From sequence record PQ658967.1: a stretch of 44,071 bases of DNA, one strand, 5' to 3'. Shown one piece after another: positions 3,298 to 4,440 of the stretch (the first letter of the stretch is position 1; each line of letters opens with the position of its first letter). The translations under genes were made by a program, and so were the position numbers. The notes below the pieces were generated by a model. The model had not been told where the DNA came from. It worked only from the letters and a program-made list of their open reading frames with translations, and made no database searches. This stretch comes from Escherichia phage vB_EcoS-UDS3lw.

Positions 3298-4440
3298 ATG
3301 CACCCGCAAACTAAAATTACCGATGAGCAATTGATCGCAGAAATTCAGGCAGGGACTACGGTTAAAGATATTGCGAAGAAATACGGGATTGCCCTACGCA
3401 ATGTTTATATGCGCAAAGCCCGCCTATCGAAAAAGGGAATTGGTCACGGTAATGATGCCGTGATCCGTAAGCGAGTTGCAGATGGCTTCGGAGTTAAGCG
3501 CGTATCGGCCCTGGTGCGCGGCAATGGCGAAGAGGTCATGTCGTGGGTCATCACTGAGCAGGACAAAGAGCGCCAACTCGAAGCCATGCGCGCTGTTGTC
3601 GAGGGTATGAACAGCGAAATCACACCGGCAGCGCCAGTAAACGCCCCGCCAGTACCGATCCAGGCGCTAGACTTGCTCAACCTGTACACCGTGTCCGACT
3701 TCCACCTGGGTATGCTGGCATGGGGCGAGGAGACTGGCGAAGATTGGGATATGGCGATCGCCGAAGACCTGTTCTACCGCTGGTTTGTCGAAGCCTTCGC
3801 CCGCGCCCCGGACGCAGGCACTGCCGTAATTAATATTCTCGGGGATATGGCGCACTTTGATAGCCTCGATGCTGTCACTCCGGCAAGTGGTCACATACTG
3901 GACGCTGACACCCGCTACCAGAAACTGGTCCGATACATGATTCGCATGGTGCGCAACGTCGTCGAACTGGCGCTGCAAAAACACCACAAAGTCAAACTGC
4001 TAATCGTCCAGGGAAATCATGACGAGTCGGGTATGATTTGGCTGGCGGAGATGTTCAATACTCTGTACGAGAACGAGCCGCGCGTCGATGTGGATACGTC
4101 CCCGGACGTCTACAAAATGGTGCAGCACGGTAAGACCACGCTATTCTTCCACCATGGGCACAAAGCGCGCTTTGACGCTATCGAAACCGTCATGATTTCT
4201 AAATTCAGACAGGCTTTCGGATCCAGTGAGTACAGCTACGCGCACATAGGCCACCTGCACCACCAGAAGATTGTAGAATCCCGCAACATGATTGTTGAAC
4301 AGCACCGGACGCTCGCAGCGAAAGACGCCTACGCCAGTCGTGGCGGTTGGATGTCCGGTCGCAGCGCAAACGTCATTACCTACAGCGCCAACTACGGCGA
4401 AGTAGCGCGCTTAACCATTAGCCCGGAAATGTTGAAGTAA
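3298..4440 (+). CDS. calcineurin-like metallophosphoesterase with N-terminal HTH-like region
   Basis: Motifs GDMAHFD, VQGNHDE, HHGHK, IGHLHH match the phosphoesterase metal-binding signature. Confidence 0.6.
   Translation: MHPQTKITDEQLIAEIQAGTTVKDIAKKYGIALRNVYMRKARLSKKGIGHGNDAVIRKRVADGFGVKRVSALVRGNGEEVMSWVITEQDKERQLEAMRAVVEGMNSEITPAAPVNAPPVPIQALDLLNLYTVSDFHLGMLAWGEETGEDWDMAIAEDLFYRWFVEAFARAPDAGTAVINILGDMAHFDSLDAVTPASGHILDADTRYQKLVRYMIRMVRNVVELALQKHHKVKLLIVQGNHDESGMIWLAEMFNTLYENEPRVDVDTSPDVYKMVQHGKTTLFFHHGHKARFDAIETVMISKFRQAFGSSEYSYAHIGHLHHQKIVESRNMIVEQHRTLAAKDAYASRGGWMSGRSANVITYSANYGEVARLTISPEMLK

Follow-up and report, generated by a model that had tools for sequence, protein, structure and literature searches.

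A Metallophosphoesterase Gene Lies Between the Lysis and Terminase Genes

The window analyzed here is a stretch of 44,071 nucleotides from Escherichia phage vB_EcoS-UDS3lw (PQ658967.1), and the gene in question occupies positions 3298..4440 on its plus strand. This open reading frame (ORF) starts with ATG, has an AGGA 11 nt upstream of the start codon and encodes a 380-residue protein, a metallophosphoesterase (MPE) fused to a helix-turn-helix (HTH) region, which belongs to the T1 gp16-like family (PHROG 704). An earlier sequence-only reading had placed the gene between the lysis cassette and the small terminase gene, and this is indeed where it lies. Upstream are two holin genes (1867-2157 and 2154-2399), an endolysin gene (2386-2877) and a small ORF matching PHROG 11068 (2893-3060); downstream are the genes for TerS (∼4571 to 5122), TerL (5122-6507) and the portal protein (6518-8038). 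In the region of the MPE gene, the DNA is ∼95% identical to that of Dhillonvirus coliphages such as bob and jat, and the window reads as that of a Dhillonvirus-like coliphage.

The same reading had claimed the MPE motifs GDxxH, GNHDE and GHxH and an HTH-like N-terminal segment, and both claims hold. The binuclear MPE domain (residues 121-380; 3658..4437, plus strand) contains all five motifs of the calcineurin-like superfamily, DxH / GDxx[DH] / GNH[DE] / H / GHxH, and has the β-α-β-α-β sandwich fold of that superfamily. Specifically, motif I is D134-F-H136 (nt 3697-3705), motif II is G182-D-M-A-H186 (nt 3841-3855), motif III is G239-N-H-D-E243 (nt 4012-4026), motif IV is H285-H-G-H288 (nt 4150-4161) and motif V is G318-H-L-H-H322 (nt 4249-4263), all on the plus strand. 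We counted conservation in an alignment of 142 relatives, mostly 31-50% identical. Residues D134, H136, G182, D183, T194, N240, H241 and H286 are invariant in these relatives, and H186, D188, P195, D202, D204, R206, D242, H285, H288, H319 and H321 are at least 90% conserved; among relatives this divergent, such conservation places the motifs beyond chance. Five of these residues (T194, P195, D202, D204 and R206) fall in a family-specific insertion, FDSLDAVTPASGHILDADTR, that follows motif II within the catalytic domain. Compared with phage bob, the gene has 39 synonymous and 2 nonsynonymous differences, a ratio of nonsynonymous to synonymous substitution rates (dN/dS) of 0.013, and it is under strong purifying selection. 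Together, this ratio and the conservation in the 142 relatives argue for an active-site-competent enzyme rather than a decayed domain.

The protein misses the Pfam gathering scores for both Metallophos (20.2 against 21.5 bits) and Metallophos_2 (22.2 against 27 bits), and in a Pfam scan of 100 family members only ∼20% gave a Metallophos-type match at E ≤ 0.01. Because the scores fall below the cutoffs, assignment to the MPE superfamily rests on the motifs and the fold. By these scores the family is a divergent clade, with a catalytic domain far from the Pfam models.

The AlphaFold2 model, made with the 142-sequence alignment, has a mean predicted local distance difference test (pLDDT) score of 92.1 and a predicted template modeling (pTM) score of 0.79. 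It shows a tri-helical HTH at residues 9-45 (3322..3432, plus strand; helices 9-17, 22-29 and 33-45, pLDDT 92-95), a less confident linker, and then a β-hairpin of residues 64-88 (strands 64-73 and 79-88) followed by a helix of residues 90-105 (hairpin and helix, 3487..3612, plus strand). A flexible linker extends from there to approximately residue 120, where the compact MPE domain begins. Two hairpin residues, G77 and W83, are near-invariant in the 142 relatives. The HTH Pfam matches of the protein itself are weak (GerE, HTH_7 and HTH_28, E 0.03-0.06), and the family profile gave a GerE-type match in the PDB with an E value of 0.028. In the 100 scanned members, however, every noncatalytic Pfam match is to an HTH family: HTH_1 in 18, Sigma70_r4_2 in 11 (best E 1.5e-9), HTH_23 in 11 and GerE in 7 (best E 2.4e-8). 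These matches across members indicate that the HTH-like segment is a real feature of the family.

The Gene Appears to Form Its Own Transcription Unit

Upstream of the MPE gene, a terminator-like hairpin, AAGCCCGG-N6-CCGGGCTT, followed by a T-run (3067..3088, plus strand) ends the lysis unit; its stem is kept in phage bob and its loop varies. It is followed by a σ70-like promoter candidate, TTGACT-18-CATACT (3097..3126, plus strand), which matched at 9 of 12 positions in a two-hexamer scan. Both hexamers are identical in bob, and the spacer has four substitutions. This candidate may drive a short transcription unit that holds the MPE gene. A second terminator-like hairpin (4461-4481) with its T-run (together 4461..4487, plus strand) begins 20 nt past the stop codon of the gene and is identical in bob. 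Ahead of TerS is an extended −10 element, TGTTATAAT (4492..4500, plus strand), which was read from the sequence and is absent from the two-hexamer scan output; it suggests that the terminase genes begin a new transcription unit at this point. The MPE gene seems to be an insulated unit with a promoter of its own, expressed apart from the terminase genes.

Between the promoter-like site and the MPE gene lies a putative mini-ORF of 26 mostly hydrophobic residues, MARKDIWVLAIWTTAAFIGMVICELI (3156..3236, plus strand), whose ribosome-binding site, GGAGGAG, is strong. It is 100% identical at the nucleotide level in bob, where it is unannotated, despite diverging intergenic flanks. A perfect 9-bp inverted repeat, GGACCGTGG-N8-CCACGGTCC (3250..3275; −20.5 kcal/mol, z −2.2), stands 22 nt upstream of the start codon. 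The repeat occurs once in the window and lacks a T-run, which argues against both a classic terminator and a repeated operator. A role as repeated operator for the HTH was rejected, as the window has 7 matches to the half-site against an expectation of 11.2 and so shows no enrichment.

The Gene Belongs to a Large and Persistent Phage Family

The window protein matches PHROG 704, "DNA repair exonuclease," over its full length (residues 5-380, E 1.3e-160) and so belongs to this family, whose prototype is T1 gp16. Deposited Dhillonvirus proteins are 97-99.5% identical to it (best protein match 99.5%), Webervirus and Jerseyvirus orthologs are 43-49% identical, and 99 phage records have the same gene arrangement as the window. 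Matches by tblastn were found in 2,062 phage records, from phages of Escherichia, Klebsiella, Salmonella, Vibrio, Campylobacter and others. An exhaustive search gave 4,660 clusters (50% identity) at E ≤ 1e-3, 1,128 of them at ≤ 1e-30, and nearly all are 370-420 residues long. A pangenome analysis found the gene to be persistent in Drexlerviridae, in 508 of 522 genomes (PMC13164509). The sequence-only reading had suggested something unusual. That impression does not survive, as annotations of this gene exist for hundreds of deposited phage genomes; the window protein is an ordinary T1 gp16-like member with nothing substantive to set it apart, and the finding as such is already known, being the correct domain reading of an annotated and very common phage gene.

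Labels in the records range from "calcineurin-like phosphoesterase superfamily domain protein" and "putative phosphoesterase" to "DNA repair exonuclease" and "hypothetical protein," and neither NCBIfam nor PADLOC has a model that covers the window protein. The "DNA repair exonuclease" label of the family is purely inferential. The gene matters as a persistent and strongly constrained core gene of several phage groups that are isolated widely and serve in therapy and biocontrol, namely Drexlerviridae, Dhillonvirus, Kagunavirus and Jerseyvirus.

Genomic Context Points to Lysis Cassettes and Module Boundaries

The gene keeps varied company in other phages. The Webervirus order is Dam, three small genes, the MPE gene, a phosphatase, a P-loop kinase and then holin/endolysin/spanin, and in T1 the MPE gene is followed by an HNH gene, a small gene and holin-endolysin-spanin. 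Vibrio phages have an endolysin, small genes, the MPE gene and HNH, and Jerseyviruses have an island of superinfection immunity, MPE gene, HNH and Ant inside the tail module. In the T4-like Campylobacter phage F370, the homolog (hhalign E 5e-40) lacks the HTH, directly follows a gp30-like DNA ligase and lies near a Holliday-junction resolvase.

A scan of one genome per bacterial species added 57 loci, for 41 of which the neighbors were clustered. Many of the 57 are part of large replicons, among them complete chromosomes of Sphingomonas, Luteibacter and Noviherbaspirillum. The commonest companion is an endolysin cluster (13 of the 41 loci), HNH endonucleases occur in 8 of the 41, and an integrase stands directly beside the MPE gene in four betaproteobacterial loci. 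Sphingomonad prophages have the order tail protein, MPE gene, endolysin. Pseudomonas lambdoid prophages have an O-like initiator, DnaB, further genes, NinG/Rap, a small gene, a T7-lysozyme-like gene and the MPE gene. The linkage that recurs across the family is thus with the lysis cassette and with module boundaries rather than with the terminase.

Two of these arrangements deserve separate mention. In Pseudomonas prophages L024, L030, L031 and L033 (∼6600-9200), the MPE gene follows NinG/Rap in the slot that NinH-NinI holds in the lambda nin region; the likeness appears to be one of position, with no detectable homology between the catalytic domains. In the alphaproteobacterial loci L043, L044, L045 and L054 (∼9000-11200), the MPE gene is followed by an HNH endonuclease gene, a second, unrelated metallophosphoesterase of PHROG 1649 and a PHROG 318 "dNMP phosphatase," which together make a small phosphohydrolase cluster.

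The site of the gene in the window had implied a link to packaging. Such a role would be that of an accessory nuclease whose HTH recognizes a site near pac and whose MPE domain nicks or cuts concatemers for or with the terminase. The gene does lie directly upstream of TerS/TerL in Dhillonviruses, and small terminase subunits, too, make use of HTH folds. However, the hairpin at 4461-4481 and the new extended −10 element set the gene apart from TerS, the hairpin at 3067-3088 sets it apart from the lysis genes, and the window TerL has an RNaseH-like nuclease domain of its own. Furthermore, terminase adjacency is not conserved: it is missing in T1, Webervirus, Jerseyvirus, Vibrio and Campylobacter phages and in nearly all prophage loci. 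On these transcription signals and the lack of terminase synteny the packaging link was rejected, and we regard a packaging nuclease as very unlikely.

Context also bears on a possible end-healing phosphatase, which would remove 3′-phosphate or 2′,3′-cyclic phosphate ends together with a phage polynucleotide kinase (Pnk) and so repair DNA or RNA damaged by host nucleases. In many Drexlerviridae the gene is immediately followed by Pnk or by a phosphatase and a P-loop kinase (PMC13164509), and MPE-type phosphatase domains heal ends in bacterial Pnkp (PMC2190708). The window likewise encodes a Pnk-like protein (29372-29842), but 25 kb separate its gene from the MPE gene, the two are on opposite strands, a search of the window for a ligase found none, and the PHROG-based Pnk adjacency is lineage-specific. 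Moreover, the Pnkp phosphatase domain and lambda phosphatase are reported to share one MPE superfamily (PMC2190708), and lambda NinI aligns with the present family at noise level, as given below. We consider end healing quite unlikely. As a separate observation, the Pnk-like gene (PHROG 415) and a neighbor whose PHROG is labeled "phosphofructokinase" occupy 28754-29842 on the minus strand, beside two DNA methyltransferase genes; in T1-like phages, unlike in the window, a Pnk gene often directly follows the MPE gene.

The Catalytic Domain Is Modestly Closer to Nucleases Than to Phosphatases

Scores in the fold search included 13.9 for LpxH, 13.5 for MJ0936 and 13.5 for Pyrococcus furiosus Mre11; the cyclic-nucleotide phosphodiesterases and glycerophosphodiesterases Rv0805 and GpdQ scored ∼12, and protein phosphatase 5 only 9.1. 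Foldseek gave the same order, with Mre11 at 3e-8, the small subunit of PolD (DP1) at 1e-7 and Rv0805 and GpdQ close behind. When the protein sequence alone was searched against the PDB, only spurious repeat-protein matches came back, and family profiles gave nothing significant. When the catalytic-domain profile was used against the PDB, it reached only Thermotoga Mre11/SbcD chains, at nonsignificant E values of 0.45-1.4. The alignment is in register at SDWHLG, GDLLH, GNHD and GHIH of the Thermotoga protein, and GDMAH of the window protein is aligned with its GDLLH. Motif II thus carries the Mre11-type histidine and is not the GDxVDRG of PPP phosphatases. In the fold comparison only 186-191 residues align with SbcD/Mre11 chains of 319-362 residues, and the window protein ends directly past the MPE core; this alignment gave no evidence of an Mre11-type capping domain or of Rad50-binding C-terminal helices.

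We also aligned the catalytic profile with single sequences by hhalign, each with 60 shuffles as a control. In this comparison lambda NinI scored 18.5 (shuffles 13.8 ± 2.2; 2 of 60 reach it), with its motifs out of register. This result bears on a Ser/Thr (or Tyr) protein phosphatase that acts on host signaling as an equivalent of NinI, a role in signaling having been raised from the sequence. Such a phosphatase would fit the NinH-NinI slot in the Pseudomonas prophages, and the HTH + MPE outline resembles a fusion of NinH, a small HTH protein, with NinI. However, the GDxVDRG/GNHE signature of the PPP family is absent from the sequence, the NinI alignment is at the level of noise, and the PPP fold scores are low. 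The Ser/Thr phosphatase was rejected on these grounds, and we regard it as the least probable of the readings weighed here. The outcome for the separation of families that had been proposed is therefore split: the Ser/Thr phosphatases drop out, the nuclease clade is favored modestly, and membership in Mre11/SbcD itself is not demonstrable.

Another rival is a cyclic-nucleotide or nucleotide phosphodiesterase, acting on small molecules such as cyclic AMP, cyclic oligonucleotide immune signals, or substrates of the nicotinamide adenine dinucleotide (NAD) or deoxynucleoside triphosphate (dNTP) type, with the HTH serving for autoregulation. An enzyme of this kind would modulate host physiology or counter nucleotide-signaling defense. 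The insulated cassette with its promoter and terminator features is in keeping with it, as are the accessory slots beside superinfection-immunity, Ant or integrase genes in Jerseyviruses and prophages, and calcineurin-like domains do act on NAD and dNTPs in defense systems. Nevertheless, nucleases rank higher in the two fold searches, motif II has an Mre11-like histidine (GDxxH), and a covalently fused DNA-binding domain is kept family-wide. In addition, PADLOC gave no match for the window protein, and in virulent phage families the gene belongs to the persistent core, unlike an accessory gene of patchy distribution. We thus consider a nucleotide phosphodiesterase unlikely.

T5 A1 Is the Closest Studied Analogue

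T5 A1, a predicted metallophosphatase, is necessary and sufficient for degradation of the host chromosome in vivo and has been likened to the metal-dependent nucleases that act in double-strand-break repair and in the proofreading of polymerases, according to a 2026 preprint (bioRxiv 10.64898/2026.04.02.716235). These nuclease classes are the neighbors found here for the window protein. Of the characterized MPEs, A1 also scored best against the catalytic profile (hhalign 31.0; shuffles 14.6 ± 3.1; 0 of 60 reach it). When the catalytic-domain profiles of A1 and the window family were aligned, the match spanned 216 columns (E 2.5e-4, probability 43%), with motifs II-V and a C-terminal "ITY" strand in register, and the N-terminal regions are collinear with an E value of 2.6e-4. 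The full-length collinear alignment scored 37.2, compared to 15-23 for reversed or column-shuffled controls. Many A1 relatives of ∼530 residues have N-terminal HTH Pfam domains. With the single T5 A1 sequence, BLASTP and hhalign aligned motif III only. The top matches in BFVD are the family itself, followed by many phage MPEs of 370-500 residues named "DNA polymerase II small subunit" or "metallophosphatase." A further parallel, to T5 A1 together with Dmp, was rejected, as the alphaproteobacterial "dNMP phosphatase" neighbor is unrelated to T5 Dmp (E 0.27). We treat A1 as the nearest analogue that has been studied and possibly a remote homolog, rather than as an established relative.

A Stand-Alone DNA Nuclease as the Preferred Reading

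Taken together, we regard it as an even call that the MPE protein is a DNA nuclease, that is, a stand-alone two-metal DNA phosphodiesterase; any one biological role for it is considerably less probable. The position of the F370 homolog after a ligase and near a resolvase, and that of the Pseudomonas prophage gene after NinG/Rap, were counted in favor of a DNA nuclease. The metal use, DNA substrate, HTH role and biological role that we infer are as follows. Two metal ions, probably Mn2+, would be held by D134/H136, D183, N240, H286 and H319/H321, with H241 of motif III and the Mre11-type H186 of motif II acting on the scissile phosphate and the leaving group. The family-specific loop T194-R206 after motif II probably forms a substrate lid or takes part in substrate binding. 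Through the hairpin-helix module and the flexible linker, the HTH would tether the catalytic domain to DNA, and this tether would take the place of the Rad50/SbcC clamp on which canonical Mre11/SbcD depends. In lytic growth the enzyme would degrade or trim DNA, be it the host chromosome, ends, or branched or blocked intermediates, and this would support phage replication, recombination and nucleotide supply.

A wider proposal, which we hold to be rather doubtful, is that a single clade of HTH-tethered, Rad50-independent, Mre11/DP1-like DNases splits into two branches, the T1 gp16-like family and T5 A1. If it were true, the protein would be the nuclease, as yet unassigned, with which T1-like phages, Dhillonvirus, Jerseyvirus and related siphophages attack or process DNA, and its action could include host-chromosome breakdown that feeds defense sensors such as Metis and PUA-Cal-HAD.

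Several points weigh against the stand-alone DNA nuclease. The sequence links to solved Mre11/SbcD structures are those nonsignificant ones of the profile search, and Escherichia coli SbcD scored 22.5 in hhalign (shuffles 14.8 ± 2.6; 2 of 60 reach it). The link to A1 is weak (hhalign E 2.5e-4 to 9e-4, probability 23-43%), with motif I out of register in one alignment; A1 matches only PHROG 1745, to which the window protein has no match, and A1 was not identifiable in the top 50 BFVD fold matches, many entries of which are nameless. The case for A1 as a nuclease itself comes from in vivo work (bioRxiv 10.64898/2026.04.02.716235). Among Drexlerviridae, the text of the paper on a host-DNA-degradation sensor names only Bas12 as a phage that the sensor robustly protected against. 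The occurrence of the family in temperate prophages, beside integrases, makes wholesale destruction of the host genome unlikely as a universal role, although virulent lineages may still use it so. Finally, a literature search found no functional, biochemical or genetic study of any family member, and the literature on "calcineurin-like" proteins and host DNA degradation concerns defense proteins, which are different from the MPE gene.

Were the protein an A1-like DNase, >2,000 deposited phage genomes would gain a function for one of their genes, and it would become clear how these phages process or destroy DNA without an SbcCD-type complex. The enzyme would also be a candidate source of the degradation products that recently described defense systems sense, and it would offer a small Rad50-independent Mre11-like enzyme for structural study.

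Other Features of the Window and of Public Records

Apart from the MPE gene, the 763-residue DNA polymerase ORF (34453-36744, minus strand) matches PHROG 93 "endonuclease" over residues ∼465-561 and is ∼200 residues longer than the matched span of the polymerase profile; the insertion may be homing-endonuclease or intein-like. In phage bob, only a 145-residue "DNA polymerase" fragment is annotated. Directly upstream of the primase-helicase gene, a 109-residue protein is encoded at 40907-41236 (plus strand), for which the names conflict: the bob label is a Gam-like "DNA recombination nuclease inhibitor" and PHROG 9366 is "transposase."

Two public records among the matches to the window region, OQ221563.1 ("Acinetobacter phage NJ01") and PQ843332.1 (P-GXEC-L2P5), call for caution. 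The former is ∼94% identical to the coliphage region, which makes its host label doubtful, and the latter (88.6 kb) matches in three places and eight pieces and thus looks like a concatenated or chimeric assembly.

Comparison with Known Systems

The window protein shares with the T1 gp16-like family (PHROG 704) the same HTH + MPE architecture and the same length of ∼380 residues. Like the window gene, T1 gp16 is near the lysis cassette and is followed by an annotated rho-independent terminator. The position differs, in that the gene stands after the lysis genes and before TerS in Dhillonviruses and before the lysis genes in T1-like phages.

Lambda NinI, of the PPP family, belongs to the same MPE superfamily and occupies a similar genomic slot in lambdoid prophages after NinG/Rap, but is of a different clade. 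In contrast to Mre11/SbcD and T4 gp47-type proteins, the window protein carries an HTH in its N-terminal region, and 20 residues are inserted after its motif II. No Rad50/SbcC or SMC-like partner was found among the ORFs of the 44-kb window, where the ORFs of at least 500 residues encode the portal, tape measure, tail tip, tail fiber, helicase, polymerase and primase-helicase. Compared to DP1, the PolD small subunit and a 3′-5′ proofreading exonuclease, the window protein is without a DP2 partner, and the sequence identity is 13%; the phage polymerase of the window matches PHROG 17 "DNA polymerase." T5 A1 and the window protein have in common an "NHD-x5-WL" after motif III and a His-containing insertion after motif II. 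A1 is longer, at 556 residues, and its N-terminal region and MPE domain are set ∼160 residues further apart. Its gene is pre-early in a phage that injects its DNA in two steps, where A1 is also needed for second-step transfer.

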